From Clostridia bacterium (lineage in GTDB: Bacteria > Bacillota > Clostridia > Oscillospirales > QAKW01), in contig JAGBEI010000013.1 in the NCBI GenBank assembly GCA_017937065.1, forward strand, positions 31,333 to 95,332: a stretch of 64,000 nucleotides of DNA. The letters are read 5' to 3'. The notes under the pieces are model-generated. The model searched no databases, was not told where the DNA came from, and saw only the letters and a list, made by a program, of their open reading frames with translations. A program made the position numbers and the translations under genes. Below, one piece after another: positions 36,320 through 64,000 of the stretch. Position 1 is the first letter of the stretch. Every line of letters starts with the position of its first letter.

Positions 36320-38365
36320 ATGAAAAATTTCAGAGCACCCGCGACCCCGCTTATTACCGTAGACCCTTACTTCAACATATGGTCGTTTGCCGACACGCTT
36401 TACGGCGACACCCCGCGCCACTGGACAGGTCAGCGCCATTTTCTGACCGGTATTGTAACAATCGACGGTGAACCGCTGAAGTTTATGGGTATGCTCAACC
36501 CCGACAATTTACGCTACCGCACCGAGCCGGAGGTTATAGAGCAGATAAGCTGCGAGATACGCCCGATGACAACAAAATATGTGTTTGAAAACGAAAATGT
36601 CACGCTTAAGGTGGATTTTATGACTCCTCTTATCCCTACCGACCTGTATCTCATGTCCAGACCTATTTCCTACATATCTTACAGTATAGAGGCAAAGGAC
36701 GGAAAGCCGCACGACATAGAAATGTACATAGATGTGAGCTGTGAGCTGTGCGTAAACACCCCCGACAGGGCTGTAACGCTGGGAAAAACGGATTATTCGC
36801 TGACGGCATCATCGGGAACGGACAGCATGCTTGTACGCTCAGGCGACGACCACCGCATTGAATGGGGCACTCTGCACCTGATAGCGCCGGGCTTTGAAAC
36901 CTACTTTATAGACGCGGCAAACAAGGCGGCAAAATTCCGCCGCTGTGTCGAAAGCGCCAAATACACACAATATAGAAATGTTGAATGCGGCAGTACCATA
37001 AGACCGCAGGACGGCTGGACGGCGCTTGCCTGTCAAAAGACATACGGCAGCACAAAAAAAGCCGGGGACTTTATCTGCATCGGCTATGACGATATAAAAT
37101 CAATACAGTATTTCGGCGAAAACATCGAAGCCTACTGGCGGCGCGACGGCGCACAGTTTGAGGATATAGCGCATCTGGCGGTAAAGGACTATTCCGATAT
37201 ATGCGCGCGCGTTGTAAAATTTGAAACCGAGCTTATGGAAAGGGCGCGCAAAATCAGCGATAAATACGAGCAGATCCTGTCGCTGGCATTCCGCCAGGTA
37301 ATTGCAGCGCACAAGCTCTGCTGGCATGACGGCGAAGTACAGTTTTTATCAAAGGAAAACTATTCAAACGGCTGTATCGGAACGGTTGACGTCACATATC
37401 CGTCCATACCCATGTTTCTCGTTTACAATCCCGAGCTTGTCGAGGGTATGCTAAACCCCATATTCAAGATGTGCAGCCTGGGAATGTGGAAATACGAATT
37501 CGCTCCGCACGACGTCGGACAGTACCCGCTTGCAAACATGCAGGTCTACGGTATCGGCGACAGATTTACAAAGCGCTTTCTCGAGCGCCGCATCTATGAA
37601 AGCGGCATGACGCTGGAGCAATATGAAAAGTCGTATCAGATGCCGATTGAGGAATGCGGCAACATGCTGCTTTGTGTCGCAGCCGTGTGCGCGGCAAAAA
37701 AGGACACGTCCTATGCAAAGGAACACCTTGATATACTCAATATGTGGGCGGATTACCTTGTAAAATGCGGCTTTGACCCTGCGAATCAGCTGTGTACCGA
37801 CGATTTTGCAGGTCACCTTGCCCATAACTGCAATCTTTCCGTAAAGTCAATCGAGGCGCTGGCGGCATGGTCAAAGGTATTGTCTCAGCTCGGAGAGAAT
37901 GTAAAGTCCGCATTTTACCGCGTAAAGGCGGAGGAATTTGCAAAGTGCTGGGAGCAGCATGCAAACGCCGGTGACCATTACAAGCTTGCGTTTGACCAGG
38001 ATGACGAGAGCTGGTCGCTCAAATACAACATGGTCTGGGATAAGCTTTTGGATCTCAACGTATTTGACAGCAAAATCGCCGAAAAAGAGGTTGCACATTA
38101 CATGACAAAAGTTAACCGCTTCGGCATACCGCTGGATATACGCTCCGATTACACAAAAAGCGACTGGCAGATGTGGACAACAGTGCTGACCGACAATAAG
38201 AAATACCTTGACACTGTGGTGGACGCGATGTACGAAATGCTTGAAAACACGCGCGACCGCGCGCCATTTACCGACTGGTACTATACATCAACTCCGTACA
38301 AACGCAGCTTCCAGAACCGCACCGTTCAGGGCGGACTGTTTATCAATCTGCTCAATCTGAAATAA
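36320..38365 (+). CDS. Glutaminase-A-like glycoside-hydrolase-fold protein (DUF4964/DUF5127/DUF4965/DUF1793 architecture), cytoplasmic
   Basis: The N-terminus FRAPATPLITVDPYFNIWS is characteristic of this family, and the C-terminal half resembles an (alpha/alpha)6 barrel. ATG 36320 lies after AAAGGAG. Confidence 0.7.
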   Translation: MKNFRAPATPLITVDPYFNIWSFADTLYGDTPRHWTGQRHFLTGIVTIDGEPLKFMGMLNPDNLRYRTEPEVIEQISCEIRPMTTKYVFENENVTLKVDFMTPLIPTDLYLMSRPISYISYSIEAKDGKPHDIEMYIDVSCELCVNTPDRAVTLGKTDYSLTASSGTDSMLVRSGDDHRIEWGTLHLIAPGFETYFIDAANKAAKFRRCVESAKYTQYRNVECGSTIRPQDGWTALACQKTYGSTKKAGDFICIGYDDIKSIQYFGENIEAYWRRDGAQFEDIAHLAVKDYSDICARVVKFETELMERARKISDKYEQILSLAFRQVIAAHKLCWHDGEVQFLSKENYSNGCIGTVDVTYPSIPMFLVYNPELVEGMLNPIFKMCSLGMWKYEFAPHDVGQYPLANMQVYGIGDRFTKRFLERRIYESGMTLEQYEKSYQMPIEECGNMLLCVAAVCAAKKDTSYAKEHLDILNMWADYLVKCGFDPANQLCTDDFAGHLAHNCNLSVKSIEALAAWSKVLSQLGENVKSAFYRVKAEEFAKCWEQHANAGDHYKLAFDQDDESWSLKYNMVWDKLLDLNVFDSKIAEKEVAHYMTKVNRFGIPLDIRSDYTKSDWQMWTTVLTDNKKYLDTVVDAMYEMLENTRDRAPFTDWYYTSTPYKRSFQNRTVQGGLFINLLNLK

Positions 38366-42217: not shown

Positions 42218-42333
42218 GTACGCAGAATGTTGTCTGTTTTATACCGAATGTTTTAAAACCGATAATTTTATTGATTTTGCAAAAATGACGCGTTAATATT
42301 AATGCAGACAATAAACTGTCGGAGGTGTATGAA

Positions 42334-43470
42334 TTGAAGGATTTTTTCAGAGAAGGCAAGCCGCTGCACTTTGTATTCCCCATTGACGGCGACTGCCTTA
42401 ACGCACATGACGGAACGCTGACGGAAAACGGGCTTGAAATTACGGCGGCAGTCAGCGCACCGCGCGGAAGAAATGTCAAAATCAACGGCTGTGCGGCTGA
42501 GTTTGACGGACAAGACTACATCTGCACCGTCAGGCTGAACAAAAGCCGCGCAGGGCTTTGCAAAACCGTCCTGTCGGCGTCGGACGACAAGGGAGACTGC
42601 GACTGCATAGCCGTATACGACGTGTCGAAAACGCAGGGCGGCTTTCGCATCTCGTCAGACGACAACATACTGTTTCTCCGTGACATAAACGACAATCGGG
42701 ATACATACAAGTCCATATTCGAAAATCCGTATCTTGCGGTATATAAACGCGCGCACGACCTGTACGGCGCAAAGGTACACCTCAACCTGTTTTACGAAAC
42801 GGACGATATGCATACCTTTAACGAAAAGGGGCAGTATTTCAATCTGTCCATGATGACGGACAAATTCAAGTCCGAGTTTGAGCAAAATTCCGACTGGCTG
42901 CGCCTGTCGTTTCACGCGCGCAGCGAGTTCCCGCCAAAGCCCTACGAGCACACGTCGGCGCAGAGAATAAAAGAGGACGCGCAGCTTATCAACCGCCAAA
43001 TAATTCGGTTTGCGGGTCAAAAAACGCTCGCGCGCGGCGCCACCGTGCATTTCGGTACGGCAACGCGGGAGGGCACGGCTGCCCTGCGCGCTCTGGGCTG
43101 CGCTTTCCTTGCGGGATATTTTGAGCACACAAAGGACGGCAAGCCCCTTGTCGCCTATTATTATCCCGACAGGCTTACAGACCGTATCGGCGCACGCGAT
43201 TTCTGGATGAATACCGAGGACGATATACTGCACGCGCGCATTGACCTTGTTCTCAATGCCGTAAAATACCCTCAGCTGCTCACCGAGCTTGAAAAAATAC
43301 GTCTCTGCCCCCACCGCGCCGGCTTTTTAGAGCTGATGATACACGAGCAGTATTTTTATCCGCAGTACAGCCGGCATATTCCCGAATTTGAGCTGCTGAT
43401 TACCGACTCTGCAAAATGGGCTGTGCAAAACGGGTACCGCGGCATGTTTTTCAGCGACGAGCTTTTATAG
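42334..43470 (+). CDS. Hypothetical protein, possibly a divergent polysaccharide-deacetylase-like barrel with an N-terminal beta-sandwich
   Basis: This is a long ORF with coding-like composition. TTG 42334 lies 8 nt after GGAGG; the track start is GTG 42325, inside the RBS. RISSDDNILFL loosely resembles the NodB TFDD motif. I recognise no firm family. Confidence 0.45.
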   Translation: MKDFFREGKPLHFVFPIDGDCLNAHDGTLTENGLEITAAVSAPRGRNVKINGCAAEFDGQDYICTVRLNKSRAGLCKTVLSASDDKGDCDCIAVYDVSKTQGGFRISSDDNILFLRDINDNRDTYKSIFENPYLAVYKRAHDLYGAKVHLNLFYETDDMHTFNEKGQYFNLSMMTDKFKSEFEQNSDWLRLSFHARSEFPPKPYEHTSAQRIKEDAQLINRQIIRFAGQKTLARGATVHFGTATREGTAALRALGCAFLAGYFEHTKDGKPLVAYYYPDRLTDRIGARDFWMNTEDDILHARIDLVLNAVKYPQLLTELEKIRLCPHRAGFLELMIHEQYFYPQYSRHIPEFELLITDSAKWAVQNGYRGMFFSDELL

Positions 43471-45186: not shown

Positions 45187-45312
45187 GCATCAATTTGCAC
45201 AAATTTTTGTTAAAATACAAAAAACGATTGATTTATTATTTACAAAGATATAATATTTTTATGGTATTTAATTTTGTTCCTGAAAATTAAAAACGATTGG
45301 AGAGATGAATTC

Positions 45313-48300
45313 ATGAAGCGATTTATCTCGGCGGTTTTGAGCGCATGCATTATGCTGTCGCTCATCGGTACGGGCGGATTTTCATTCGCCGTCCCCGCCG
45401 AAAACCCAATGCAGGGCACTGAGTATTCCGCGATGTTTGACAGCACGTCGGACGTATACGGAAATACCTTTGTCATCAGCCCGCAGTGGCAGACCGATTC
45501 TGCCGTTGAGGGTGAAACGGATATGCAGTTTGTATTTTCCGGTGTAACAATTACCGAAAAGTATGATAAGGCGCGCCACTTTGCAAGCTATGACGCGGCA
45601 GCGGCAGCGTTTGAAAGCCGATACATACGGGACGGCGCGCTCACAAAGGAAATTGCAGCTGCAGTACCCAGCTTTATACTTGCCGCGGGAACATACGGCG
45701 GCGATATAACAGTAAGGTACAGCGCAAACATTTACGGTGCAAAGGCGGGTATCAATCCCAACGACCCCGACTTTGACATAAGCGCCGCTTTACCGACAGA
45801 TGCGTGGAACGCAAACCCCGAAAGGAGCGGCAGCGAGGGCGAAACAGTCATCTCGGGCACCGTGCTGCGCTCCAATAAAAACGGCAGCTCCGCCTCCGAC
45901 CTCAAATACGAGCAGCCGCTGAAGGACGCAGGCGTCACAGGCTACACGCTGAACATCGACGGCGTTAAATTTACGGGCACGACGGCAGTTTTGTCCAACG
46001 ACCTGACCTATAATGTCGGTCTTGCCAGAACAAACGCCGTAAACGTGTACAACACGATATTTAACGGTGTAAACTACGGTCTGAGCGCGGACGGCGATAC
46101 CAGCCGCAACTTTAACGACTATACACTGCGCAATATCCGCGTTACGGGGCTAAAGAGCGACGGCAGCGGCGCGCTCATACGCAAGTATCCGCGCACTGTC
46201 AGCATCGAGGGCATGAACTTTGAGCAAAACGCAGGCGGACTGTATATCGGCGGCACGGCGTCAAATACCAACGACCTGTGGTGGACCAACTGCGGCGGCG
46301 CGCGCGGAGTTTCCTTTACCGTAAAGGGCTCGCGGTTTGCCGACAACAGCGTCTACACTCTCGGAAATTTCACGGATAACTGTTATCTCCCGTCATTGAA
46401 TCTGACCTTTGAATCAAGCATTTTCAAGGACACAACGTCGGGAAAATGGGGAATTTTCAGAGCAGACACCTTTTCGGGCTCGGGATATCCGACACTGAAG
46501 CTCAAATTTACAAACAACACCTTTTACGGCAGTCCCGATTTAGCGTACAACACTATACTGAACGGCAACGCCAATTATCAGAAGGCGGCATTTGACATTG
46601 AGTTCAACTACAACAGGGTAATCGGTTATAAGTCAATGTTCATGAACATCACCTCCGACATGGACACGTGGCTGTCAGGCTGTAACTGGAGCTATGACAA
46701 CAACTATGTTGCAGACACGTTTGTCTCGGCTGACGACGAGCTGGGCAAAAAGCCGGAGTACCTCACGAATTCAGCGACCGTCAACCCCGTAAATCTGAAT
46801 TCACTCGAGTATTTCTTCGATTATAAAATGATGGTGGGCAACGCAAGCCTCAAAATCACCGGCGCCGATTTTGAAGACAAGGTTGAATTTTTCTCGATAA
46901 ACAATAAAAACCTGTCCGTGTCCGCCATGCTGGACGAGGGCGTCGTCATAGAAAATCCCAAATTCACCGCCAGCAGCGAGTCCGCCGAAATCGGCTTTTT
47001 CGAGGACGCCGACAAGCAGATTCCCGTCACCTCGATAAGCTATGACGATTTGGGGGACGAGGGCAAAAGAGTATACTATCTGACGGTTACCTATAAAAAT
47101 ATCGTCATTGACTATCTTGTGACCTTTACGGCAAAGGGCGACACATTTGTTTTTGCAAACAGATTTGACGACCCCGCCGGTGTTATAGACAAAACGGCTG
47201 CTCTTCTCATGAACGAGGACGGCTTTGCAAGCGGCACCGAGGTCACGAAAATGTGGCAGAACCAGCTTTGGTCGTTCACGGTGGGCGTCAACGCCTTTTC
47301 AAGCGTTGAGGAGGCGCGCGCGGCGGGCATTACCCAGATGATACTGCCCGCAGGCGAGTACGACTCGGTCAGCATCAACGGGTCTGTCGAGCTGTACGGC
47401 GAGGGCTACGCCGAAAATCCCAACAGCATTCCCGACGACAGAACAAAAGAATGGGCACTATCGGACAGCTGGAGAGCGGCAGAGCAGACGCAGGTTGCAA
47501 ACATATCGGTCGAGCAGTCCGCAACGCCGCGGGACGATAGCGGCACGCAGATTGTCATAAAGGGAATAAATCTCACGGGCAGATTTATCGACGACAAGCG
47601 CGCGGTATCCGAGTTTAAAACATCGGTTCTGCTTGAGAACAACATACTCGGCTTCAACCGTACCGTAAGCGGCGTTACATATATATTTGCTTTAAATAAC
47701 GCAAACGCACAGAGTACGGATAATACGGTAAAAAATATTGATGAATTTACCGTGAAAAACTCACGGTACGAATTTGAAAACAACAGCGCGTCCTTGCGTC
47801 TGTTTGCCGAAATATGTCCGGCAAGCGTGACGCTGGACGGAATTTACTTTGGCAGCGGCTTTATAACGCTGGGCTATCCGAAATGGAGAAACTGCGTAGA
47901 CAACGGCACGCTTGAGGTATCAAGCTGTTATTTCAAGGAATACTCGCGCTCCAAGGACATGGTGATAGCGCTTTGCGGTCACGCCGACCAGTGTGATTCT
48001 ACGGGCAAAACCACGCGCGCCGTATTCAGGGACAACGTGCTGATAGACTGCTTTAACAGCGGGCACAATGCCAATTCAAATGTGGCGGTAAACATCTTCC
48101 CCGGCGCGTTTACAAGCATTGACATTGCGGACAACACGTTTATAGACACTCAAAACAGGCTCGGAAATATCCTGAAGGTGCAGTCTTCGGCATACAGCCC
48201 CAACACATCTGATTTTTCGGATAAAATCAGCTTTACGGGCAACCGCGTTATCGGTCTTGCACCGTTTGTAACCGTAAACGATGCAACGGCGGCGCTGACA

Positions 48301-51300
48301 AGCTGCGACGGCAACTATTACGCGCGCTATACCGAGGACTATGCGTCGGCATACGGAAGCTGCAAGCTTTACGGCGTTTTGAAAAACGGCGACTGCTACC
48401 TCGACTACCAAAAGACGACAAAAGCGTCAGAGCTTGACATGGTAATCGACAGAGAGCTTTCAATGGTGAACAATGAGACGCGGGAGGCGTCGGTTGTAAT
48501 CGGCGAAAACGAAAGATACATTCCCAAGATTAAAAGCTCAAACGGCAAGTATCTCTTCCACTTCTTTGAGGATGAAAACTGCTGTAGCTCGGTGGGCACG
48601 CTGACACGTGAGAATGTCGGCAGCGGACGCGCGTTCTGGGCAAAGGCTGTTTCTCCGTCGGGCGTATCCGTAGTATACAAGGTATACGTCAGCGTCGGAA
48701 GCTTTGACGCCAAGGCTCCCGACACGGTAGGAGATAAGAACATAGAAAATCCGTATCTTTTCTATCTGGGCACGGAGGATATGCCTGTCGGCACCGTATT
48801 TACAATGCCGTGGCAGGGTGAGGACTATATATTCACCGCAGGCAAAAACGCCTTTGCGTCTATATCACAGATAATCAACTGCCACGAGCAAAATTCACAG
48901 GGCACGCCCAACGTAATACTTCCGTCAGGCATTTACAGCGACGAGATTGTCGTCACAAAGACCGTGAACATCTACGGCGAAAACAGCGATGATACCGTGC
49001 TGAAAAATGAACCGAACACAAAGGACGCCATAAAAATTGCGTGCGTGGGCGACTCCATAACCGAGGGAATCGGAATTGACGCGGCACAGCGCCCGGCGTC
49101 CGCATACCCCGCACAGCTCCAGACAATACTGGACGAGCGCTACGGGCAGGGCAGCTACAATGTCGGCAACTTCGGCTGGGGCGGCTCTACCATCAACGTA
49201 CAGACCAACCGTGAGACGACAAGCTACACCTACTGGACCTACATCTATTCGGTACAATATTACAAATCGCTTGACTTCAATCCGGATATAGTGGTTATTA
49301 TGATGGGGCACAACGATACGCACACCCAGCTGTATTCAACGGCTGAGGGGTACAAAGCGCAGTATCAGGCACTGATTGACAGCTATGAGGCGCTGCCCTC
49401 TCACCCGACAGTTGTAATCGCGGGCTGCACCTCACGCACCGCCTCAATCCGCCGCGACCTGCTGCTTGAAACTATCATTCCGATGCAAAAGGAGCTTGCA
49501 GCGGACAACGGGCTTATCTATATCGACATGTTCAGCCCCACAAACGGCAAAGAGGGCGACAAGACCCTGTTTACCGACGGACTGCACTGCACGGCGGCGG
49601 GCTACAACATGCTTGCAACGCTTATCGCAAACGGCATGGAGCCGATTCTCGGCACCGAGCGCGCAGTGACAACGGCGGATATAAAAATTGACGCAGACGT
49701 GTCGGATACGCCGGAGAGCAAAATCAAGGTTGCGTGTATCGGCGACAGCCTGACCTACGGCGACAAGGCGTACAAGGGCTATCCCGTATATCTCGGAGAA
49801 ATGCTCGGCGACAGGTACGAGGTGCGCAACTTCGGCGAATGCGGCGCCATTGCGTGCGACGAGTCCACACTGAAAAGCGGCACCAACTGGTGCTATAAGA
49901 ATTATGAGCGCTACACGCAGTCCAAGGCGTGGAAGCCCGATATCGTCATACTGATGCTGGGCTACAACGACGCGGGCGGACACCTTACAGACTTCCATTC
50001 GGTCAACTGGACGGGCGGAGAAAACAGCACCGCCGCCGCAGAGTTTGAAAAGGACTATAAGGCGCTCGTTCAGGAGTACACGGAGCTTGGCGCACAGGTT
50101 TACATTGTGAACACGCCCTGCTCCAACAACGCCTCTGACAAAAACGGCACGTCCAATCAGGCGCGTTACATCAACCCGATAATAGAGCGCACGGCAAGCG
50201 AGCTTGAGCTTCCGTTTGTAGACATTCATTCGTTTACAAAGCCGTGGGGTACAGACATGTACTGCGGCACAAACAGCGCCGGCACAACAGACAACACGCA
50301 CATGTCCGCCAAGGGCTATGAGGCGATGGCGTCATTTATGTTTGACAGTATCTTCTCTGTATTTGCCGACAGCTACTGCGATGATTTGGGCGAAATTTCA
50401 AGCAGTGCCGTGATAGTGGATCTTCAGGCGCCGGAGCATCAGGACGGCGATATCGTCTCCTATGCGTGGGAGGGCGAAGACTACCAGTTTGTTTGGGGAG
50501 AGAACGCCTTTGCAAATATAGATGATGCGATTAACAGTGCAAACGCAAAAGGAAGCACGTCTTTACAGGCGCTCATTCCGGAAAACAGTCACCAAACGTC
50601 GTGGGAGGGCGATTTTATCATAACCGCCGACACGACAAATATAAAATCGCTTGAGGTGTTCGGCATAAACCGCCGCTTTGACCCCAATGACAAGTCGGCG
50701 GCAAGCTCCGACCCGACAGCGGACTGGACGCTGAATCCCGACTGGGATATGTATGCCCGAAACGGCGGCACGTCGGCAATGAACAGAATAACCTTCAACT
50801 GCAACGACGATAACAACAATGTCATTCTGAGCGGCAAGGTTAAATTCAAGGGTATCACCATGCGCAACATCGTCTGGAACTCGGAGCGCAAGGAGGGCAC
50901 GGCAGAAAATCCGCGCAACCTTAACCTTATTTTTGAAAACGTGCTTGTCGATTTCACAGCCGCAAGCGGCTCGGGCGGATACCTGTTCAACCTGAACTCG
51001 CCGCGCTCAAACAGCAAAACCTTTGCTGCCGACGATTCACTGACGCTGAGGAATTTCCGCATCGAAAAATTCTTGTACAAGAGCGGCAAAAACAGGATTA
51101 TGGGCACTTACGGTCCGAACAATATAACTCTGGACGGATTTTACTACAACGGCGGCAGAAATGAGCTGAACGGCACAAATTACCCGCTCGCTCAGTTCGG
51201 ATGGATTCAGACGTCGCCCGCTGCAAAAAGCTCTGAGGTTTATATCCTCAACTCAAATTTCAGAAACGACAATGTAGCTTTCAATACAGCGCCGATAAGC

Positions 51301-54300
51301 AACGCCGTTGCTGCAAACAATACACCGAGCGTATACGAAATCAAAAACAACGTTTTCTATAACGTCAGCGGTGCGATAGTTACATTCCCCAAATACTACA
51401 CGGCATTTGCCGTTGAGGACAACTACTTTATTCAGCCGGACGGGACAAAGAGCTTTATTACAAACAACGGCTCGCACACCGACCAGACGGTAAATTACAA
51501 CGAAACTATCGGTTACAGCGCAAGAAACAACACGTTTGTACTGGCTGACCTTTCAAAGTATTCACCCATTACGCTCAACAGCGTAACGGCTCCCGGTGCG
51601 GACCTCACAGGCTCGTATGTTGCGCAGTATACCGACGATTACAAGGATAAAATCGCAGGCACGGCACCCGCTGTCGGTCAGAGCGATTACTTCTATACCG
51701 ACTTTATCCGCTCGGTCAAAAACACAGACCTTGAAATCGTTTCACTGGGCGCGTGTGCATACGCCGAAAAAACGGAAATAGCCGCCGACACCGTAACGCT
51801 CACAGCTACGGGCGGGCAGGTTATAGACGACACAAGCGTAACATGCAAAAATAAAAATATCACAACGGCTGTCTTTGCAGACGAGCAGCTGACGCAGCCC
51901 GCGAAGAGATTTGAGCTGCCTGCAAACGAGACGGGCAAAACCTACTGGATAAAGCTCAGCTACGGTGAATTTTCAAAAGTTTACCGACTGGAATTTTTAC
52001 TCGGTACGGCGCCCGCGTTTGCGGAAAACTACACCGATATCAACGGTATAGTCAAAAACACAGCCGTCGCGCTGCTTCCCGCGGCAGACGGTTTGGAGGA
52101 CGGAACGCAGCTGACAGCGCGCTGGAACGGGACGCTGTACTCGTTTACGGCGGGACAAAACGCGTTTGCTTCAATGGAGGCAATTTACGAAAAGTTCCCC
52201 GATGAAAAGCTGCAAGTCATACTGCCTGCGGGCAAGTATACCAAAAACATGTATGTCTACGGCTCATGGGAGGTTTACGGCGAAGGCTATGCGGTAAATC
52301 CCAACAACACCGAAGGCAAAGACCGGAGCTTTAACGAAGGCTGGAGCAAAAACGGCGAAACGGTGCTGGAAAACGCCAACCTTGTCATCGCAAAGGAGGC
52401 GACTCCCGAAACCGAAAACGGGACGGAAATTACCGTTGCGGGCATACGGCTTACAAAGTATATAAACGATGCTCAGAGAACTCAAAGCCCGTACAAAACA
52501 ACGGTTACGCTGAAAAACAATGTATATGAGCGCAAATATCTCACGGGAGCTGCGCGTGAATTTGACCTGCGCTGTGAAAACAATGTTTGTCAGGACGATG
52601 AATTTACAAATATTGATGAATTCAATATAGTAAACCTGCATTATATTAACTCCAACCCGTCAAATCAGCACGCAATGTTCCAGGAGCTTGTCGCACCGTT
52701 TATGACAATAGACGGACTGTGCATTGCGGGTAGCTGTCCCACAATCGGCTATCCCAAGGTGACAAAGGCGGCAAAGGAAACCTCATTCACGCTTAAAAAC
52801 AGCTATTTCAAGGAGCTGACGGCTGGCAGCGCGCGATTTGCATTTATCGCGTCCTTCAGCGGTCACGACCAGAACGTGGCAAGCGCCGACAGGACAGGAT
52901 ACAAATCGGCACTGCTTCTTGAAAACAACAAATTCATCAGCTGCGGAAACGAATCGACAGGCGGCGATACACAGCGCTTCCCCGTTCAGATTTTCCCGCA
53001 GTCCTACAACGACATAAGCATCATAGGCAACGATGTGATTTCGCCCGCTGACGGCGATTACAAATTTATCGACTGGGCGACAATAAGCTATTCGGTAAAT
53101 TCGGGGGACTACTCAGACAGGATAGAATTTGCCGAAAACAGGCTGATAGGCGTTATGCCGTCGGTATATGTCAATTCCGATACGGAGCTTGACCTTTCGG
53201 GCAATTATTTTGCAAAGTACACATCGGACTATGACACGGCGGCGCTCGGTGACATACCGGCAGACACAGACGCCGACTTCTATCTTGACTTCGGGCGCAC
53301 AGTAAAGCTCAGCGATACCGCGCCGCGCTCGGACAGCATTTCGGGCTTCAGCGTTCTGCCCGAGACAAAAACGGCTTACGGTTATGCCGAAGCTGACATT
53401 TCCGATTTCGGACTGTCAAACTCACACGGCACAAGCTATACCGTTTATTCCGATAAAGCCTGCACCCTGCCCGTGACTACACTGACAGTGGAAAGCGGCA
53501 GTGCATCGGTCGCATACATCAAAGCGGCAAACGGAAGTGTCAGCACAGTCTATACCCTTTATATAATCGGTGTGGATAATATTTCGGATATTTCCGCCGA
53601 GGTTGACCCGCAGCAGGTGGACGGAATTGAAACGCCCTCTGTTTACTACCCGTCGCTTTACGGCGCACCGGACGGAATCGTGGCTGTTGCACGCTACGGC
53701 GGCAAACCTTACGGATTTACGACGGGCAGCCGCGTCGTCTCAAACGTCACGACAATGGCGGCGACAAGCACTGAAATCCTGCTGCCCGACAGTATAACGG
53801 AATTTAACGAGACCGTTATAAGCGGAGTATCGCTGCACAGCGCAGAAAGCGCCGTGCTTGCGGGTATACGCACAAGAAAGATGAAGATTGCGGCAGTAGG
53901 CGATTCGATTACTCAGGGCGTCGGCGCAGGCTCAACGACGTCTTACCCCGCACAGCTTCAAAAATATCTCGGAACAGATCAGTTTGAGGTTAAAAACTTC
54001 GGTAAAAGCGCAGCTACCGTCCAGATTATAGGCGGCAGCGCCGAGCGCGGATACAAGGAGTTCGCCAAGACCGAGTATGAAGCAAGCCTTGCGTATGAGC
54101 CGGATGTTGTAATCTTCGCACTGGGTACAAACGACGTCTATGCGTCCCGCTGGGATTCCAATACCGATTACGCGAACGAGTATATTGAGCTTATAAGAAC
54201 CTATCAGCAGCTGCCAAGCAAGCCGGCAGTTTACATCACAACGGCACTGAAGCGCGCAGATAATCTGATGATGAACGAGCGCGTCGAACAAAATCTCATA

Positions 54301-55269
54301 AATATTCAGGAGTACGTTGCAGGAGCAGTCGGCGGCAAGGTAATTGATACTCATGCTTATATGGCGCCCTTCCTTGACGGTACAACCACATATTTCGGCG
54401 ATAACCTTCACCCGACGGCACAGGGATATACCGAAATGTCGTCGTTTATAGGACGTGAGCTTTTGAGCGATATCAAGACCTTTGACAGTTTAAGCTTTAA
54501 CGGTATGACTGTAACGGGCAGGCTTGAGGCTGTAAGCACAAATACCGAAATCAGCTTTACCGACTGCGAGATTTTACTGACCGAGGACGGCAAATGCACG
54601 GTTGACGCGGACAGCATCGGCACGCTTAACATCGACGGCTGTATATTTACCGATGAAAACTCAAGCTTTGACTTTATCGACGCCGGCAGACTGATAGATT
54701 TCGGCGGAGATGAGATGGTGCTTTCCGACCAGCTTCGCGGAGGAACGGACGCGGACGGACTTGTAATTTCCTCCACCTCCAGCTGGTATGCCAGAAAACC
54801 GCGCAGCACAAAGGCGGTACTTATAAATGCGGTTATACCCGAAAAGGAAACCTCAATAAAAGACGCCGAAAATCTGCTGCTTGACAGCGGAAACTACGAT
54901 TTGGGCTGGTACGGTCTCTTTGAGCTTTCAAAATACGGTATCGGCAATGTCGGAAATATCATAAGCGTCGGCGCTGTCACCTCCGGTGACACAAACGGAA
55001 TTTCACGTCTTACCTCCGAGCTTCAAGCCGCTGTCGACGCACAGGGCGACTTCAGCGGTCTCAATGTAAAGAGCCCGGCAGGTGAGATTTCAACCGCAAG
55101 CGCAGACGTTTACTGGAACGACGATGAGCAGAAATTCTGCACAAAATACACGCTTTCCGATGTTCCCGCAGGCGATACAGCCTATACACTCATGTGGATT
55201 GTCTACATCGACCGAGACGGAAACGAAGTATTATCATGCAGTATGCTTGACGCAACCCTGGCAAAATAA
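45313..55269 (+). CDS. Giant secreted mosaic protein (3,318 aa): 4 beta-helix-like modules, 4 beta-sandwich linkers, 3 SGNH/GDSL esterase domains
   Basis: The frame is uninterrupted. ATG 45313 lies 9 nt after GGAGAG. A signal peptide (MKRFISAVLSACIMLSLIGTGGFSFA) is present. Details are given in the findings. Confidence 0.85.
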   Translation: MKRFISAVLSACIMLSLIGTGGFSFAVPAENPMQGTEYSAMFDSTSDVYGNTFVISPQWQTDSAVEGETDMQFVFSGVTITEKYDKARHFASYDAAAAAFESRYIRDGALTKEIAAAVPSFILAAGTYGGDITVRYSANIYGAKAGINPNDPDFDISAALPTDAWNANPERSGSEGETVISGTVLRSNKNGSSASDLKYEQPLKDAGVTGYTLNIDGVKFTGTTAVLSNDLTYNVGLARTNAVNVYNTIFNGVNYGLSADGDTSRNFNDYTLRNIRVTGLKSDGSGALIRKYPRTVSIEGMNFEQNAGGLYIGGTASNTNDLWWTNCGGARGVSFTVKGSRFADNSVYTLGNFTDNCYLPSLNLTFESSIFKDTTSGKWGIFRADTFSGSGYPTLKLKFTNNTFYGSPDLAYNTILNGNANYQKAAFDIEFNYNRVIGYKSMFMNITSDMDTWLSGCNWSYDNNYVADTFVSADDELGKKPEYLTNSATVNPVNLNSLEYFFDYKMMVGNASLKITGADFEDKVEFFSINNKNLSVSAMLDEGVVIENPKFTASSESAEIGFFEDADKQIPVTSISYDDLGDEGKRVYYLTVTYKNIVIDYLVTFTAKGDTFVFANRFDDPAGVIDKTAALLMNEDGFASGTEVTKMWQNQLWSFTVGVNAFSSVEEARAAGITQMILPAGEYDSVSINGSVELYGEGYAENPNSIPDDRTKEWALSDSWRAAEQTQVANISVEQSATPRDDSGTQIVIKGINLTGRFIDDKRAVSEFKTSVLLENNILGFNRTVSGVTYIFALNNANAQSTDNTVKNIDEFTVKNSRYEFENNSASLRLFAEICPASVTLDGIYFGSGFITLGYPKWRNCVDNGTLEVSSCYFKEYSRSKDMVIALCGHADQCDSTGKTTRAVFRDNVLIDCFNSGHNANSNVAVNIFPGAFTSIDIADNTFIDTQNRLGNILKVQSSAYSPNTSDFSDKISFTGNRVIGLAPFVTVNDATAALTSCDGNYYARYTEDYASAYGSCKLYGVLKNGDCYLDYQKTTKASELDMVIDRELSMVNNETREASVVIGENERYIPKIKSSNGKYLFHFFEDENCCSSVGTLTRENVGSGRAFWAKAVSPSGVSVVYKVYVSVGSFDAKAPDTVGDKNIENPYLFYLGTEDMPVGTVFTMPWQGEDYIFTAGKNAFASISQIINCHEQNSQGTPNVILPSGIYSDEIVVTKTVNIYGENSDDTVLKNEPNTKDAIKIACVGDSITEGIGIDAAQRPASAYPAQLQTILDERYGQGSYNVGNFGWGGSTINVQTNRETTSYTYWTYIYSVQYYKSLDFNPDIVVIMMGHNDTHTQLYSTAEGYKAQYQALIDSYEALPSHPTVVIAGCTSRTASIRRDLLLETIIPMQKELAADNGLIYIDMFSPTNGKEGDKTLFTDGLHCTAAGYNMLATLIANGMEPILGTERAVTTADIKIDADVSDTPESKIKVACIGDSLTYGDKAYKGYPVYLGEMLGDRYEVRNFGECGAIACDESTLKSGTNWCYKNYERYTQSKAWKPDIVILMLGYNDAGGHLTDFHSVNWTGGENSTAAAEFEKDYKALVQEYTELGAQVYIVNTPCSNNASDKNGTSNQARYINPIIERTASELELPFVDIHSFTKPWGTDMYCGTNSAGTTDNTHMSAKGYEAMASFMFDSIFSVFADSYCDDLGEISSSAVIVDLQAPEHQDGDIVSYAWEGEDYQFVWGENAFANIDDAINSANAKGSTSLQALIPENSHQTSWEGDFIITADTTNIKSLEVFGINRRFDPNDKSAASSDPTADWTLNPDWDMYARNGGTSAMNRITFNCNDDNNNVILSGKVKFKGITMRNIVWNSERKEGTAENPRNLNLIFENVLVDFTAASGSGGYLFNLNSPRSNSKTFAADDSLTLRNFRIEKFLYKSGKNRIMGTYGPNNITLDGFYYNGGRNELNGTNYPLAQFGWIQTSPAAKSSEVYILNSNFRNDNVAFNTAPISNAVAANNTPSVYEIKNNVFYNVSGAIVTFPKYYTAFAVEDNYFIQPDGTKSFITNNGSHTDQTVNYNETIGYSARNNTFVLADLSKYSPITLNSVTAPGADLTGSYVAQYTDDYKDKIAGTAPAVGQSDYFYTDFIRSVKNTDLEIVSLGACAYAEKTEIAADTVTLTATGGQVIDDTSVTCKNKNITTAVFADEQLTQPAKRFELPANETGKTYWIKLSYGEFSKVYRLEFLLGTAPAFAENYTDINGIVKNTAVALLPAADGLEDGTQLTARWNGTLYSFTAGQNAFASMEAIYEKFPDEKLQVILPAGKYTKNMYVYGSWEVYGEGYAVNPNNTEGKDRSFNEGWSKNGETVLENANLVIAKEATPETENGTEITVAGIRLTKYINDAQRTQSPYKTTVTLKNNVYERKYLTGAAREFDLRCENNVCQDDEFTNIDEFNIVNLHYINSNPSNQHAMFQELVAPFMTIDGLCIAGSCPTIGYPKVTKAAKETSFTLKNSYFKELTAGSARFAFIASFSGHDQNVASADRTGYKSALLLENNKFISCGNESTGGDTQRFPVQIFPQSYNDISIIGNDVISPADGDYKFIDWATISYSVNSGDYSDRIEFAENRLIGVMPSVYVNSDTELDLSGNYFAKYTSDYDTAALGDIPADTDADFYLDFGRTVKLSDTAPRSDSISGFSVLPETKTAYGYAEADISDFGLSNSHGTSYTVYSDKACTLPVTTLTVESGSASVAYIKAANGSVSTVYTLYIIGVDNISDISAEVDPQQVDGIETPSVYYPSLYGAPDGIVAVARYGGKPYGFTTGSRVVSNVTTMAATSTEILLPDSITEFNETVISGVSLHSAESAVLAGIRTRKMKIAAVGDSITQGVGAGSTTSYPAQLQKYLGTDQFEVKNFGKSAATVQIIGGSAERGYKEFAKTEYEASLAYEPDVVIFALGTNDVYASRWDSNTDYANEYIELIRTYQQLPSKPAVYITTALKRADNLMMNERVEQNLINIQEYVAGAVGGKVIDTHAYMAPFLDGTTTYFGDNLHPTAQGYTEMSSFIGRELLSDIKTFDSLSFNGMTVTGRLEAVSTNTEISFTDCEILLTEDGKCTVDADSIGTLNIDGCIFTDENSSFDFIDAGRLIDFGGDEMVLSDQLRGGTDADGLVISSTSSWYARKPRSTKAVLINAVIPEKETSIKDAENLLLDSGNYDLGWYGLFELSKYGIGNVGNIISVGAVTSGDTNGISRLTSELQAAVDAQGDFSGLNVKSPAGEISTASADVYWNDDEQKFCTKYTLSDVPAGDTAYTLMWIVYIDRDGNEVLSCSMLDATLAK
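49030..49650 (+). other. SGNH/GDSL hydrolase domain 1 of the giant protein
   Basis: Block I is IACVGDSITEG, block II is FGWGGST, block III is MMGHNDT and block V is DGLHCTAAGY. Confidence 0.8.
49711..50350 (+). other. SGNH/GDSL hydrolase domain 2 of the giant protein
   Basis: Block I is VACIGDSLTYG, block II is FGECGA, block III is MLGYNDA and block V is DNTHMSAKGY. Confidence 0.8.
53881..54470 (+). other. SGNH/GDSL hydrolase domain 3 of the giant protein
   Basis: Block I is IAAVGDSITQG, block II is FGKSAAT, block III is ALGTNDV and block V is DNLHPTAQGY. Confidence 0.8.
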
Positions 55270-55288: not shown

Positions 55289-55320
55289 AAAGCCGCGGGG
55301 AAATTTCCCCGCGGCTTTTC
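55289..55320 (+). terminator. Intrinsic terminator of the giant gene
   Basis: AAAGCCGCGGGGAAATTTCCCCGCGGCTTTT forms a GC-rich palindromic hairpin with a T-run. Confidence 0.85.
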
Positions 55321-55882: not shown

Positions 55883-56212
55883 TTGACAAGCATAAAATCC
55901 GTGTTATAATGAATAAATAAAGGCGATGATAAAGAGGATCGGGCTTTGGCGCTTACAGAGAGTCGGCGGGCGGTGTGAGCTGACAGCAGATGAGTCCAGC
56001 GGTCTATGGCTTTTGAGCCGAAGGTCTGAAAACTGCGGTTGAGAAATTCAATTTACGGCAGCTTTAGGGTCTTCCGTACTGCCGCGTTAAGGCAAAGGGC
56101 TTGCTTGAGTCCGATGAGAGGCGTTTTTATTAAGCGCAAATTGAGTGGTACCGCGGGAAAAGTATAATTTCCGTCTCAAGGTCATTTACAGACTTTGAGG
56201 CGGTTTTTTATT
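55883..56212 (+). promoter_or_regulatory. Promoter plus T-box leader (probable Met specifier) controlling metY-metA
   Basis: TTGACA (55883), a 16-nt spacer and TGtTATAAT (55902-55910) form the promoter. Stem I carries AGAGAG and GGTGTGA. ATG-A sits in the specifier position (about 55990). The T-box sequence is AAATTGAGTGGTACCGCGG (about 56138-56156). The terminator is CCGTCTCAAGGTC/GACTTTGAGGCGG followed by T6. Confidence 0.8.
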
Positions 56213-56246: not shown

Positions 56247-57524
56247 ATGTACAACATCGAAACCAAATGCGTGCAGGGCGGCTACACGCCGGGAAACGGA
56301 GAACCGAGGCAGGTACCGATAATTCAGAGTACGACCTTCAAATACACGTCCAGCGAGGATATGGCAAAGCTGTTTGACCTTGAAGCAAACGGTTACTTCT
56401 ATTCACGCCTGCAAAACCCCACCTGCGACACCGTCGCGGCTAAAATATGCGAGCTTGAAGGCGGCACTGCCGCAATGCTGACATCGTCAGGTCAGGCGGC
56501 GTCCTTTTTTTCGATTTTCAATATAGCCCAGGCGGGCGACCATATTGTGTGCTGCTCCAGCATTTACGGCGGAACCTTTAATCTCTTTAATGTTACAATG
56601 CGCCGCATGGGCATTGACTTTTCGTTTGTATCTCCCTATTGTACGGAGGAGGAGCTTAACGCCGCTTTCCGACCCAATACAAAAGCGGTTTTCGGTGAAA
56701 CGGTGGCAAACCCCGCGCTCATCGTGCTGGATATCGAAAAATTTGCAAAAGCGGCACACGCGCACGGCTGCCCTTTAATTATCGACAACACCTTTGCAAC
56801 TCCGGTAAACTGCCGCCCGTTTGAGTGGGGCGCCGACATCGTCACACACTCCACCACAAAATATCTGGACGGCCACGGCTCCGCTGTCGGCGGCTGCATC
56901 GTTGACTCGGGCAGGTTTGACTGGACAAAGTATCCCGATAAATTCCCCGGTCTTTGCACGCCCGACGAAAGCTATCACGGCGTGACCTACACCGAGCGTT
57001 TCGGTCTTGGCGGCGCATACATAACAAAGGCGACGGCACAGCTTATGCGCGATCTTGGCTCCGTCCAGTCCCCGCAGTCGGCATACCTTCTCAACCTGGG
57101 AATTGAAAGCCTGCACCTGCGTATGCAAAGGCACTGCAAAAATGCCCAGGCAGTAGCGGAATATCTTGAGGGTCACGAAAAAATTTCATGGGTTAAATAC
57201 TGCGGGCTCAAGAGCGACAGAGACTATGAGCTTGCAAAAAAATATCTTCCCAACGGCTCCTGCGGCGTTGTCAGCTTCGGTGTGAAAGGCGGCAGAGCGG
57301 CGGCGGAGAAATTCATGGCGGGACTTAAAATCGCGGCAATAGAAACGCATGTCGCGGACGCGAGAAGCTGCTGCCTGCATCCTGCCAGCGCCACCCACCG
57401 TCAGCTCAGCGACGACGAGCTTACGGCAGCGGGAGTAACGCCCGACCTTGTTCGCTTTTCCTGCGGAATTGAAGATACGCAGGATCTTGTTGCAGATATT
57501 GCTCAGGCTCTCAAAAACGTATAA
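56247..57524 (+). CDS. metY: O-acetylhomoserine aminocarboxypropyltransferase (sulfhydrylase)
   Basis: 425 aa from the Cys/Met-metabolism PLP enzyme family. The PLP-lysine motif [11 protein letters not shown] is present. Confidence 0.9.
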
Positions 57525-57538: not shown

Positions 57539-58456
57539 ATGCCTATTAAAATTCCGGATAAGCTTCCGGCGGTGAAAACTCTTGCAGAGGAGAATATATT
57601 TGTTATGACGCAGACGCGCGCCATAACCCAGGATATACGTCCGCTCAAGCTGCTTGTGCTTAACCTGATGCCGACCAAAATCGAAACAGAGACGCAGCTT
57701 TCGCGGCTGCTGGGCAACACTCCGCTGCAAATCGAGATGGAGCTGATGCACACTCAAAGCCACCGTTCCAAAAATGTCTCTGAGGAACATTTATTTTCGT
57801 TTTACAAGACCTTTGACGAGATAAAAGACCGAAAATTCGACGGCATGATTATCACCGGCGCGCCTGTCGAAAAGCTGAAATTTGAACAGGTGGACTACTG
57901 GCAGGAGCTTTGCCGCATTATGGAGTGGACGAAAACAAACGTACACAGCACCTTTCACATTTGCTGGGGCGCACAGGCGGCAATGTACTATCATTACGGC
58001 ATTAACAAAAAACAGCTGAACAAAAAGCTGTTCGGTGTGTATCCGCATACGGTCGAGCATAAAAAATCAATACTGTTCCGCGGCTTTGACGATGTGTTCA
58101 TGGCTCCTCACTCGCGCCACACAACCGTTGCGCGGAAAGATATCGAGGCGGCGCCGGGGCTTAAAATTTTAGCCTCCTCAGAGCAGGCGGGCGTATACGC
58201 TGTAAAAAACGACAGCGGAAGTCAGATTTTCGTTTTCGGTCATTCGGAGTACGACTCCGACACGCTCAAGCGCGAATACCTTCGTGACAAGAGCGCGGGG
58301 CTTGAAATCAATGTTCCGGAAAATTATTTCCCCGATGACGACGATACAAAACCGCCGCTTGTCAGCTGGCGCAGTCATGCAAATCTTTTATTCTGTAACT
58401 GGCTTAACTATTTCGTATATCAAACAACCCCTTATGACCTGTCTAAAATAGTATAA
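57539..58456 (+). CDS. metA: Homoserine O-acyltransferase (MetA type)
   Basis: [11 protein letters not shown] ... [12 protein letters not shown] ... ITGAP ... CWGAQA are MetA motifs. Confidence 0.9.
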
Positions 58457-61682: not shown

Positions 61683-63530
61683 TTACTGACCGAACTTCAT
61701 GCTTTCTATGATGTAGTTCTGAACAATGTTGGCACCCTTGGTAGCCTCAGTTCTTACGTTGTAAGCTGCATCACCTGTGAAGCACTTGAAGAAGTTGGTG
61801 TCGGTACCGAGAGTCGAACCGGAGAAGTCGTTCATTGCAAGAGCAAATACAACATTCTTGGTAACGAAGTCAAAGTACTGTTTTCTCTGCTTGTAGTTAA
61901 AGTTGTAATACTCGAAGGTATTGAGGTTATCGAAGATAGTCTCGGTAAATCTGGTTGCCCACAGCTCCATGAACTTAAGAGCAATGTTTACGTTGTCCGG
62001 CTTGGATGTCTTCTTGGGAAGCATCATACCGAAACCGTAGTACTGGCAGATTTCCTTACCGTTTGCATTGTCAGACTTCGGATAGGGTACCCAGTTGATC
62101 TGAACCTTCTTGGAATACTCTGTATCGCGGTATACCTGGGTATACATGGTAGCGGACATGATTGTCGTACCGTTGTACAGACCGAGATGCTCTTTCTGGT
62201 TACCGGGGGATGTCTCAGAGCTGCAGCCGTAGTTTACAGAGTTACATACGCCTGTGATGAACTCCCACGCTTCAAGAGTCTCGGGCTTGAGCCAGTTGTT
62301 GATAAGCGCAGGTTTGTCAGCGTTAGCATCAATGTAAATACGGGGCGAGCCGTTTGTTGACGGCCAGATATAAGAAGCATTGGACGGCCACTGAACGAAA
62401 GCTACGAGATCCTCGCCGCGGTTGTTCTTAGCGGGTACGGATTTCATGTAATCGCTGAAGGATGACCAGCTCCATGCGCCCTTCTCCCACATAAGATGCG
62501 GGTCGGAAAGACCGAGCTCCTGTGTCAGAGTCTGATTGTACCAGATAACGTCAACAACACCGATAGGCGCGATAAGACGGAGTGTATTACCCCACTTGGC
62601 AGTATCCATGGTGTTTTTGCAGACGCCGGGTGAAGAACCTAAGTTGTTGATGTTGACAACGTCGGTGATTGAACGTGTAATACAGAGAGATGAAGGGAAT
62701 ACAACGTGGTTGGAGTATATGATATCGCACTGTTTGCCGGCATTCATAGCCTGAAGGGCTGCTTCAACCGATTTCTGGTGCTGGCTCTTTGTATACTTAA
62801 TGGTAAGACCATACTCTTTTTTGAGCTGTGAGAACCACTCCCACTCGTCGATTGTCACACCCTTTTCATTGCGGTATGACCATGCGGCAAAGTTATCCGC
62901 CGTGTAGAAAGCAAGAGTCTTTTTGTTAAGGTCTGTCAGCTTTGTGCCTGCGCGGACAAATCCTGTGTCGTCAATATTGAACGACGGAGCAAGCCCCTTA
63001 TTCTGCTGTCTGTCACGGTTGATGAGCGGGTTCTGGTCAAAGTTGTACTTGGAAGCCTCTGTCGCACGGCGCTCGGACTTCTCAAGACCCTGCTCCTCGT
63101 CGGGAATAAAGCCGTTGTCGTTTGTGATGGTTGTCTCGTAATGGAAATTCTCATCATAAGCTACATCGGTCTTGGTATCGGTAACGTTTCCGTCCTTATC
63201 CTCGGAATAACCGTCATGATGAGTTTTCTCATCATCGGATACGTTGACTTTATTACCGTTGCTGTCGGTAGAGGTACCGCCGCCGCTGCTGTTATTGCCG
63301 CCGCCGCTGCTGTTATTACCGCCGCCGCTGTTATTACCATCGGTGGAGGTGCCGCCTTCGTCGCCGTCTCCGCCTTCGGTATTTCCGCCTTCGGTACTGC
63401 CGCCCTCACCGTTGTCTGTATCGGCAACGCCGCCCTCGTCATCCGCCGGTCCCTTTTTACAGGAAACCGCCATTGACGCGAACATGAGAACAATAAGAAG
63501 TACCGCAAGATACCTGCTTAGTTTTTTCAT
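61683..63530 (-). CDS. Extracellular solute-binding lipoprotein (ABC SBP family-1-like) with a long Gly/Ser/Asn/Thr/Asp linker; orphan (no permease genes nearby)
   Basis: ATG 63530 gives MKKLSRYLAVLLIVLMFASMAVSC (lipobox). A low-complexity tether of about 100 aa follows, then a roughly 480-aa domain resembling sugar-type SBPs. Confidence 0.6.
   Translation of the reverse strand: MKKLSRYLAVLLIVLMFASMAVSCKKGPADDEGGVADTDNGEGGSTEGGNTEGGDGDEGGTSTDGNNSGGGNNSSGGGNNSSGGGTSTDSNGNKVNVSDDEKTHHDGYSEDKDGNVTDTKTDVAYDENFHYETTITNDNGFIPDEEQGLEKSERRATEASKYNFDQNPLINRDRQQNKGLAPSFNIDDTGFVRAGTKLTDLNKKTLAFYTADNFAAWSYRNEKGVTIDEWEWFSQLKKEYGLTIKYTKSQHQKSVEAALQAMNAGKQCDIIYSNHVVFPSSLCITRSITDVVNINNLGSSPGVCKNTMDTAKWGNTLRLIAPIGVVDVIWYNQTLTQELGLSDPHLMWEKGAWSWSSFSDYMKSVPAKNNRGEDLVAFVQWPSNASYIWPSTNGSPRIYIDANADKPALINNWLKPETLEAWEFITGVCNSVNYGCSSETSPGNQKEHLGLYNGTTIMSATMYTQVYRDTEYSKKVQINWVPYPKSDNANGKEICQYYGFGMMLPKKTSKPDNVNIALKFMELWATRFTETIFDNLNTFEYYNFNYKQRKQYFDFVTKNVVFALAMNDFSGSTLGTDTNFFKCFTGDAAYNVRTEATKGANIVQNYIIESMKFGQ
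63276..63335 (-). repeat. 2.9 copies of a 21-nt tandem repeat inside the SBP linker
   Basis: On the + strand the copies read (A/G)CCGCCGCCGCTGCTGTTATT twice, then a third copy lacking GCT. They encode NNSGGG-NNSSGGG-NNSSGGG. Confidence 0.85.
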
Positions 63531-64000
63531 ATTGCTTCTCCTTTTTAAAATTAAATACATTTTTATATTTTATTGCTGTCTGCAATAAAAGACGTACATC
63601 TGACAAACGCGGACTTATGTAATAAATCTATGCGGAAAGGTCCGCTTTTTATAAATTATACATAATTCCACAATACTTTGTCAATGAATTTTTAGATAAT
63701 TTTATCGGTTACCAAAAATTCTCTTGTTTTTGCCGCTCTTTTCAGGCAAAGACCGGACTTCGAATTTATTTTCCATCGCCTCACCTCTCTTTAAAGTCAA
63801 ATTCCCTTTACGTTTTCTCTGTATTTTCTTTGTTTCACCTATATATGTAACGAGAACTCAAAAATGTTGCATTTTTTTGAAGAATTTACAATCAAAATTG
63901 AACTTTGTTAATTTTGTATATTTTGGAATTTCGTTTTTGTGCAAAATGACATGCCGCCGTATATGAGTTCAAAGCAACAGCGAAAATTTCAGACTTGGTA

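Follow-up and report, generated by a model that had tools for sequence, protein, structure and literature searches.

What does a bacterium do with a secreted protein of 3,318 residues in which three esterase domains are set among four large modules of no named family? This question is raised by a giant gene in a 64,000-nt stretch of DNA from an uncultured gut Clostridia bacterium (contig JAGBEI010000013.1; this whole stretch is hereafter called the window), for which a prediction made from the letters alone had proposed an extracellular multi-esterase acting on a complex glycan. We followed up this original prediction with profile searches, structure modelling, comparison with orthologues, and an exhaustive search for relatives of the modules. 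None of the outcomes that the prediction had named as refuting it came up. The reading that we favor, with a probability of about 0.6, is that the gene encodes a secreted, extracellular, multi-site carbohydrate O-acylesterase in which the modules act as binding surfaces or spacers.

Three diverged SGNH domains

Scanning the protein against Pfam recovered three stretches matching Lipase_GDSL_2 (230.3 bits in total against a cut-off of 32.9 bits), which is the threefold match that the original prediction expected of such a scan, together with three stretches matching Lipase_GDSL (164.6 bits against 23.6); SGNH3 scanned alone scored 85.6 bits. Blocks I, III, and V of the three catalytic sets described in that prediction are present, and the G.ND and D..H motifs that it quoted were all confirmed. 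The nucleophile motifs of block I lie at residues 1246 (GDSIT), 1477 (GDSLT), and 2863 (GDSIT) and are invariant among orthologues, and so, in all of them, are the catalytic residues of blocks I, III, and V (Ser, Asn, Asp, and His); the Asp after the block III Asn is changed in a single orthologue, which reads GHNA. Block II begins with N-F-G in all three domains, and the next Gly (WGG in SGNH1, ECG in SGNH2) is replaced by Ala in SGNH3 (KSA) and in its orthologues. The Gly of block II that would supply the oxyanion hole was judged by analogy with E. coli TAP. Profile scores above threshold and the presence of blocks I, III, and V assign the three domains to the SGNH/GDSL hydrolase superfamily.

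The sole NCBIfam match of each SGNH domain was the SGNH half of the acetylxylan esterase AxeA1 (NF042968, about positions 270-459), with scores of 112, 69, and 106 bits for SGNH1, SGNH2, and SGNH3. The catalytic blocks are the same in AxeA1 and in the three domains; AxeA1 differs in that its N-terminal half is absent here, and in that three SGNH domains are joined here in one chain. Summed over the three partial matches the score was 269.9 bits, which does not reach the equivalog cut-off of 700 bits, and the domains are best described as related to AxeA1 rather than as members of its equivalog. The domains also have weak sequence matches in the PDB to 1yzf and to 2vpt, an SGNH esterase of the CE3 type. 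Given that the three domains share only 25-31% pairwise identity, they are old paralogues rather than copies made recently.

Four homologous modules and their caps

The four large modules (about 550 aa each; here U1, U2, U4, and U5) had been recognized beside the SGNH domains in the original prediction, and their mutual homology was borne out by self-BLAST (E down to 1.6e-32) and by a MAFFT alignment in which U1, U2, and U4 are 19-34% identical to U5. A search across the window with tblastn found no further module copies outside the giant gene, and no model in Pfam or NCBIfam, enzyme families included, matches the modules.

Six caps had been counted along the protein. This count is correct, but the strict form W.G..Y.F..G.NAF occurs only three times (residues 1167, 1719, and 2271), and two caps, the first (about residue 76) and the sixth (about residue 2795, YGGKPYGFTTGSRVV), have a degenerate form. 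The full caps are each followed by NPN(D/S/N) or DPND, at residues 148, 702, 1790, and 2329. Two of the six caps have no helix after them and go directly into SGNH1 and SGNH3, and the same arrangement of a cap and first rung immediately before an SGNH domain recurs in five relatives from the wider family described below (P0004-P0007 and P0061). The presence of this truncated unit before SGNH domains in several family members points to insertion of SGNH cassettes into a module directly behind its cap.

Module fold

We modeled U5 with AlphaFold2 using a 38-sequence alignment that included representatives of the wider family, and obtained a model with a pLDDT of 82.9 and a pTM of 0.83; a model from a 4-row alignment reached a pLDDT of 48, and its Foldseek matches were merely suggestive. 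In the 38-sequence model the cap (module residues 17-60) consists of an N-terminal strand, a beta-hairpin, and a helix, and is followed by a beta-solenoid (residues 65-400) of about 25 short strands, a pattern from which we estimate about nine turns. The solenoid leads into a C-terminal elaboration with a low-confidence loop (residues 439-458) and then into a four-strand-rich, immunoglobulin (Ig)-like sandwich at about 458-520; the linker between modules is disordered. The sandwich at the module end, given as roughly 90 aa in the original prediction, is therefore shorter in the model, at about 60-65 residues.

Comparisons with known structures point in the same direction as the model. A profile built from the 38-row alignment and searched against PDB sequences matched PfbA (3zpp) with E = 9.7e-7 over about 190 residues, an alignment that spans the 'v.I.nN.F' turns and, weakly, the cap; the same search gave a weak match to NosD (E = 0.12). 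Foldseek with the good model against the PDB also returned PfbA (probability 0.94, TM 0.35-0.41) together with CE8 pectin methylesterases, and against viral models it returned pectate-lyase-superfamily proteins and tailspikes with probabilities up to 1.0. All three Foldseek lists consist mainly of right-handed beta-helix proteins (PfbA, CE8, PL6, and tailspikes), so that the structure prediction and search proposed for the modules do place beta-helix proteins in the lead, at a distance. The module tails locally match Ig-like domains of titin, GhpA, and SGBP-B in Foldseek, and the C-terminal part of the profile reaches proteins carrying Cadherin-like or Ig_7 repeats. The module ends had been likened to cadherin-like domains; an Ig-like sandwich is supported by the model, Foldseek, and the profile, but the Pfam Cadherin-like model (PF12733) matched neither the whole protein nor the excised linkers at E <= 10, and no other Pfam family gave a credible match on those linkers. 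Similarly, none of the Pfam beta-helix families (Beta_helix, NosD, Pectate_lyase_3, and others) was found on the protein at E <= 1, or in 26 family members at E <= 1e-3. Together, the confident model, the profile match to PfbA, and the Foldseek lists support a beta-solenoid plus Ig fold for the modules, in line with the beta-helix reading of the original prediction.

PfbA of Streptococcus pneumoniae (3zpp / 4mr0) is the only solved protein reached by the module profile and the top-probability Foldseek match in the PDB. This adhesin folds as a parallel beta-helix of 12 strands, has a cleft of carbohydrate type, and lacks obvious catalytic residues (PMC3718772); it resembles the modules in being a beta-helix surface protein of a Gram-positive bacterium. 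PfbA differs, however, in having a single helix, an LPXTG anchor, and no esterase domains, and its identity to the module is about 11%; by comparison with PfbA, the modules have longer turns (about 35-45 residues between ladder Asn residues) and carry an Ig-like sandwich after each helix. CE8 pectin methylesterases, PL6 lyases, and pectate-lyase-superfamily tailspikes, which recur at the top of the three Foldseek searches, are of a common fold class with the modules, but no Pfam beta-helix family matches the modules, and a string scan found none of the signatures of CE8, GH28, or PL1. The modules are thus a new family inside the known parallel beta-helix superfamily, with no curated Pfam family and no close structural neighbor.

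Across 159 module instances an Asn ladder is evident, with 70-100% Asn at U5 positions 167, 206, 261, 304, 338, 374, and 396, and Gly, Pro, and aromatic residues make up the other conserved positions. These instances show no acid/base cluster that is conserved universally; the only partly conserved charged pair, D151/R154, is kept in 65-70% of them and is absent from U1.

An intact gene, maintained by purifying selection

An open reading frame (ORF) of this length in metagenome-derived DNA invites the suspicion of an assembly artefact. We identified two full-length orthologues of 3,318 and 3,319 aa, both 70% identical to the window protein, in other uncultured Clostridia species represented by metagenome-assembled genomes (MAGs) in a species-representative genome collection, and a third, 86% identical and truncated at a contig end, in the human-gut MAG MGYG-HGUT-04124. 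Their domains follow the same, collinear order with hardly any indels, and the orthologous loci retain the same flanks (a GtaA-like gene, ClpC, a GFO oxidoreductase, the giant gene, CinA, a Cys/Met PLP enzyme, and HTS). Identity varies by part, from 80-87% in the SGNH domains through 67-74% in the modules to 49-68% in the linkers and C-terminus, and SGNH1 is the most conserved part, at 85-87% against the 70%-identity orthologues. The ratio of nonsynonymous to synonymous substitution rates (dN/dS) against the 86% orthologue (L004) was about 0.11 overall, with 0.10 for U5, 0.09 for SGNH3, and 0.12 for the C-terminal domain. No internal repeats were detected at the DNA level within the giant gene, and the identical protein is encoded on 4 contigs in public assemblies. 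The gene is intact, and every part of it is under purifying selection.

Other species and independent assemblies thus carry the ORF intact and in collinear form, which answers the concern about a collapsed or chimeric assembly that accompanied the original prediction. That the window ORF is an artefact, a chimera, or a decaying pseudogene is suggested by its unusual length, its repetitive architecture, and its metagenomic origin, but this explanation is effectively refuted by modules that are divergent at the protein level and dissimilar at the DNA level, by full-length orthologues with the same domain order and flanks, by the identical protein on separate contigs, and by a dN/dS of about 0.1.

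A wider family of giant Clostridia proteins

We searched 1.84 billion cluster representatives exhaustively with HMMER, using a profile of the four modules, and recovered 134 proteins (clusters) at E <= 1e-3, 98 of them at E <= 1e-10, so that the family is a rare one. Word-indexed searches with one module or with a 13-row module alignment retrieved only three fragments, all from close orthologues. One 86%-identical orthologue fragment, on a 3,286-bp contig (L001; ENA k141_560885), is called as three ORFs (3-128, 131-1552, and 1543-3285), a split that looks like frameshift errors of a low-coverage assembly and that accounts for the near absence of the family from word-indexed protein searches.

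Nearly all family members are 1,000-5,400 aa long, have Gram-positive signal peptides, and come from uncultured Clostridia. At a local domain threshold, the members that we tabulated carry 1-7 tandem modules, and three of them (P0011, P0012, and P0014), at 3,700-5,400 aa, carry seven each. E-values for members beyond the SGNH-bearing clade (P0008-P0072 and others) go down to 1e-135, indicating that the module shared across these giant proteins reflects true homology. In a sample of 26 members scanned with Pfam, SLH domains were present in 17, CotH, Metallophos, and Exo_endo_phos were found in two members each, and a few had CE2_N, Laminin_G_3, Big_2, Flg_new, Cadherin-like, or FIVAR. This SLH-rich pattern with varied additional domains fits a scaffold carrying varied cargo. 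The giant SLH-anchored proteins share with the window protein the tandem modules and the style of signal peptide, but most of them lack an enzyme domain and end in SLH, whereas the window protein lacks SLH and carries three SGNH domains.

SGNH domains are restricted to the closest clade (P0004-P0007) and to P0061 and P0064. Within P0004-P0007 the SGNH trio is constant and the number of full modules varies from 2 to 4. The only name found for any member was 'hypothetical protein' (MBQ8606440.1, Clostridia bacterium), and a literature search for beta-helix proteins with SGNH domains, or for giant Clostridia proteins with SLH, returned nothing relevant. The original prediction had recognized no characterized protein with this architecture of four modules and three esterase domains, and these searches revealed none; as to its spread, the architecture extends beyond this genome and marks a small clade within the wider module family. 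Four modules joined to three SGNH domains and a private C-terminal domain make an uncharacterized combination, restricted to a handful of uncultured Clostridia lineages. The module itself is the unit from which a wider family of giant cell-surface proteins, so far undescribed and from uncultured Clostridia, is built.

Secretion and the C-terminal domain

The N-terminus of the window protein (K2R3, a hydrophobic core, and a junction SFA-VP) contains the sole transmembrane-like segment of the protein, and the orthologues share the start MKRF... We read it, by eye and from these features, as a Sec signal peptide of the signal peptidase I (SPase I) type. An alternative reading of 'LSAC' (residues 9-12) as a lipoprotein motif was rejected, as the Cys is too near the N-terminus and the signal peptides of other family members have no Cys. 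Ala, Thr, Ser, Gly, Asn, and Asp are abundant in the protein, which is very acidic (net charge about -161).

At the other end, the C-terminal domain matched nothing in Pfam at E <= 10 nor in a PDB profile search. The C-termini vary within the SGNH clade: P0007 has three apparent SLH repeats (judged by eye), P0005 and P0006 have other ends, and this domain is shared with the window protein by P0004 alone. Scans of the window protein gave no SLH match in Pfam, no SLH-core string, and neither LPXTG nor dockerin motifs, and the hydrophobic segment at its N-terminus is the only one. The original prediction that it has no anchor is thus upheld for SLH, LPXTG, and dockerin, but with 268 residues at the C-terminus that match nothing, it is limited to the known anchors.

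An SLH protein is encoded nearby in the same genome (window positions 31895-34234, minus strand, 778 aa), with C-terminal SLH repeats scoring 86 bits in Pfam; its N-terminal ~590 residues have no Pfam match, and the beta-helix module was not detected anywhere in the protein. It shows SLH anchoring to be in use in this organism, although the giant protein has no SLH of its own.

Gene boundaries and neighborhood

The earlier description of an uninterrupted frame with a good ribosome-binding site (RBS) and a Sec signal peptide agrees with what we found (Table 1). The frame is open mechanically from 45274 to 55269 on the plus strand, with the ATG inside it. The RBS lies within a 240-nt AT-rich intergenic region that contains one weak promoter-like site (45210-45239). 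With an RBS in an intergenic region and a GC-rich hairpin 3' of the stop codon, the giant gene looks like a single transcription unit and is apparently monocistronic.

Table 1 The giant gene, its flanking signals, and the parts of its product, in window coordinates.
Feature	Residues	Position	Strand	Description
RBS GGAGAG		45299..45304	+	8 nt 5' of ATG
Giant gene		45313-55269	+	ATG start, 3,318 codons, 0 internal stops (translation)
Signal peptide	1-26	45313..45390	+	MKRFISAVLSACIMLSLIGTGGFSFA, then VP; Sec/SPase I type by features; kept in orthologues
Module U1	60-613	45490..47151	+	Degenerate cap, beta-helix, Ig-like sandwich; most divergent, 19% identical to U5
Module U2	614-1159	47152..48789	+	Cap, beta-helix, Ig-like sandwich; 34% identical to U5
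Truncated module	1160-1235	48790..49017	+	Hairpin/helix cap and first rung only, straight into SGNH1
SGNH1	1236-1445	49018..49647	+	Motifs GDSIT, NFGWGG, GHND, DGLH
SGNH2	1460-1683	49690..50361	+	Motifs GDSLT, NFGECG, GYND, DNTH
Module U4	1684-2235	50362..52017	+	Cap, beta-helix, Ig-like sandwich
Module U5	2236-2790	52018..53682	+	Copy used for the structure model
Degenerate truncated cap	2791-2856	53683..53880	+	Cap and first rung, leads into SGNH3
SGNH3	2857-3050	53881..54462	+	Motifs GDSIT, NFGKSA, GTND, DNLH
C-terminal domain	3051-3318	54463..55269	+	268 residues plus stop; only in closest orthologues
Intrinsic-terminator-like hairpin		55289..55318	+	13-bp stem with 9 GC pairs, T-rich tail; 20 nt past stop codon

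Downstream of the giant gene, a T-box leader (window 55917-56181, plus strand; Rfam RF00230, 93.4 bits, just over the gathering score) lies upstream of genes for a Cys/Met enzyme dependent on pyridoxal phosphate (PLP; 56247-57524) and a homoserine O-succinyltransferase (57539-58456). Near the T-box are a perfect match to a -35/-10 promoter (55883-55910) and a terminator-like hairpin (56171-56203), and the leader and the genes after it look like a tRNA-sensing methionine-biosynthesis operon. The sole carbohydrate-related neighbor is a DUF4964/DUF5127/GtaA six-hairpin protein (36305-38365, plus strand) encoded 7 kb upstream and syntenic in an orthologous locus (L002); this 'glutaminase A'-like protein is probably a glycoside-hydrolase-type enzyme. 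Two ORFs, at 42325-43470 (plus strand, 381 aa) and 61683-63560 (minus strand, 624 aa), match no Pfam family at E <= 1e-5; the former keeps its position in L002 (7751-8872). The only tRNA in the window is a tRNA-Ser (anticodon TGA; 4006-4093, plus strand).

Discussion

In the interpretation that we favor, the product of the giant gene is a multi-domain chain, elongated, very acidic, and secreted, whose catalytic parts would be the three diverged but intact SGNH domains. These would strip O-acetyl or similar acyl groups off an extracellular gut polysaccharide or glycoconjugate, and the four cap/solenoid/Ig modules, probably non-catalytic, would serve as rigid spacers, glycan-binding surfaces, or both, holding the three active sites along one polymer. 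In evolutionary terms, a sub-clade of the wider family acquired the SGNH trio, and in this lineage it has another C-terminal domain where relatives have SLH. That the domains act as esterases, that the substrate is a carbohydrate, that the modules are non-catalytic, and that the protein is released rather than kept on the cell are all inferred. Glycan de-O-acylation in particular would follow from the conserved catalytic motifs and the similarity to the SGNH half of AxeA1, and the modules are read as non-catalytic because their conserved positions are the Asn ladder, Gly, Pro, and aromatic residues without a universal acid/base cluster.

Several observations nevertheless weigh against this interpretation. 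SGNH similarity at the level seen here would not by itself identify a substrate, and the gene sits among housekeeping functions such as ClpC, CinA, and methionine biosynthesis, with no polysaccharide-utilization cluster around it, so that context gives no hint of a substrate. SGNH3 departs from SGNH1 and SGNH2 in the Ala at the second Gly of block II. The D..R pair of the modules, given its retention in 65-70% of instances, could be functional, in which case the modules may themselves be catalytic. The signal peptide was assigned by eye, and right-handed coiling would follow only from the nature of the Foldseek matches; the structural neighbors are distant (TM mostly 0.3-0.4, at most about 0.45, and no Foldseek E < 1e-3).

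One may postulate alternative scenarios in which the modules or the SGNH domains play other roles. If the beta-helix modules were themselves enzymes (lyases, hydrolases, or epimerases), the protein would combine a depolymerase with an esterase; the nearest folds do include PL6 lyases, CE8 enzymes, tailspike depolymerases, and WceF, and the D..R pair is kept in 65-70% of module instances. We regard this as rather improbable, however, as no enzyme family in Pfam or NCBIfam matches the modules, their conserved positions are mostly structural, U1 has no D..R pair, and the best sequence relative, PfbA, is without evident catalytic machinery (PMC3718772). A search for CE8, GH28, and PL1 strings in the protein was also negative, which is a weak test. 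The protein could also be mainly an adhesin or surface fiber, attached to the cell via its C-terminal domain, with SGNH domains that would modify the envelope of its own cell or a partner surface (e.g., peptidoglycan or capsule O-acetyl groups) and not dietary glycans. Most sampled family members have SLH and no enzyme domain, P0007 joins the SGNH trio to three SLH repeats, an SLH protein is encoded nearby, and PfbA is an adhesin (PMC3718772), all of which lends this scenario some weight; we consider it unlikely all the same, given that the window protein has no known anchor or second hydrophobic segment, that its C-terminal domain matches nothing in Pfam or in the PDB profile search, and that the closest named relative of its SGNH domains is an acetylxylan esterase.

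A beta-helix joined to SGNH domains is a common combination in tailspikes, and a depolymerase derived from a prophage or phage would be in keeping with the tailspikes and pectate-lyase-superfamily proteins among the viral Foldseek matches. Those matches have E-values no better than 1.8e-3 and TM of about 0.3, however; the flanks are housekeeping genes in an order conserved across species, and the Sec signal peptide and SLH-anchored relatives argue for a cellular surface protein, making a viral origin very improbable.

A more speculative proposal, which we consider possible yet unlikely, extends beyond the window protein. Here the cap/beta-helix/Ig module would be the repeating unit of unrecognized giant covalent surface scaffolds of uncultured gut and rumen Clostridia, in which tandem helices would form glycan-reading rails and cargos (the SGNH trio, CotH, phosphoesterases, or CE2) would be spliced in behind truncated caps, an arrangement that would do within a single chain what cellulosomes do by assembly. 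The window protein would then be such a scaffold in released form, armed with esterases and with three sites spaced for a specific acetylation pattern on one polymer.

O-acetylation blocks many gut glycan-degrading enzymes and is found on xylan, mannan, pectin, the sialic acids of mucin, and bacterial capsules. Multi-domain carbohydrate esterases and beta-helix surface proteins are both well-known kinds, and it is their combination here that is uncharacterized. The practical value of the finding is modest pending a substrate, since the chemistry is of an expected kind and no open question hinges on the protein yet. If the favored interpretation of a secreted multi-site esterase holds, a conserved ~350-kDa protein holding three distinct esterase sites at intervals along beta-helix rods would represent an unusual form of polymer deacetylation. 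Regardless, the module has neither a Pfam model nor a named member, and defining it would give an annotation to ~130 clusters of otherwise blank giant genes in uncultured Clostridia.

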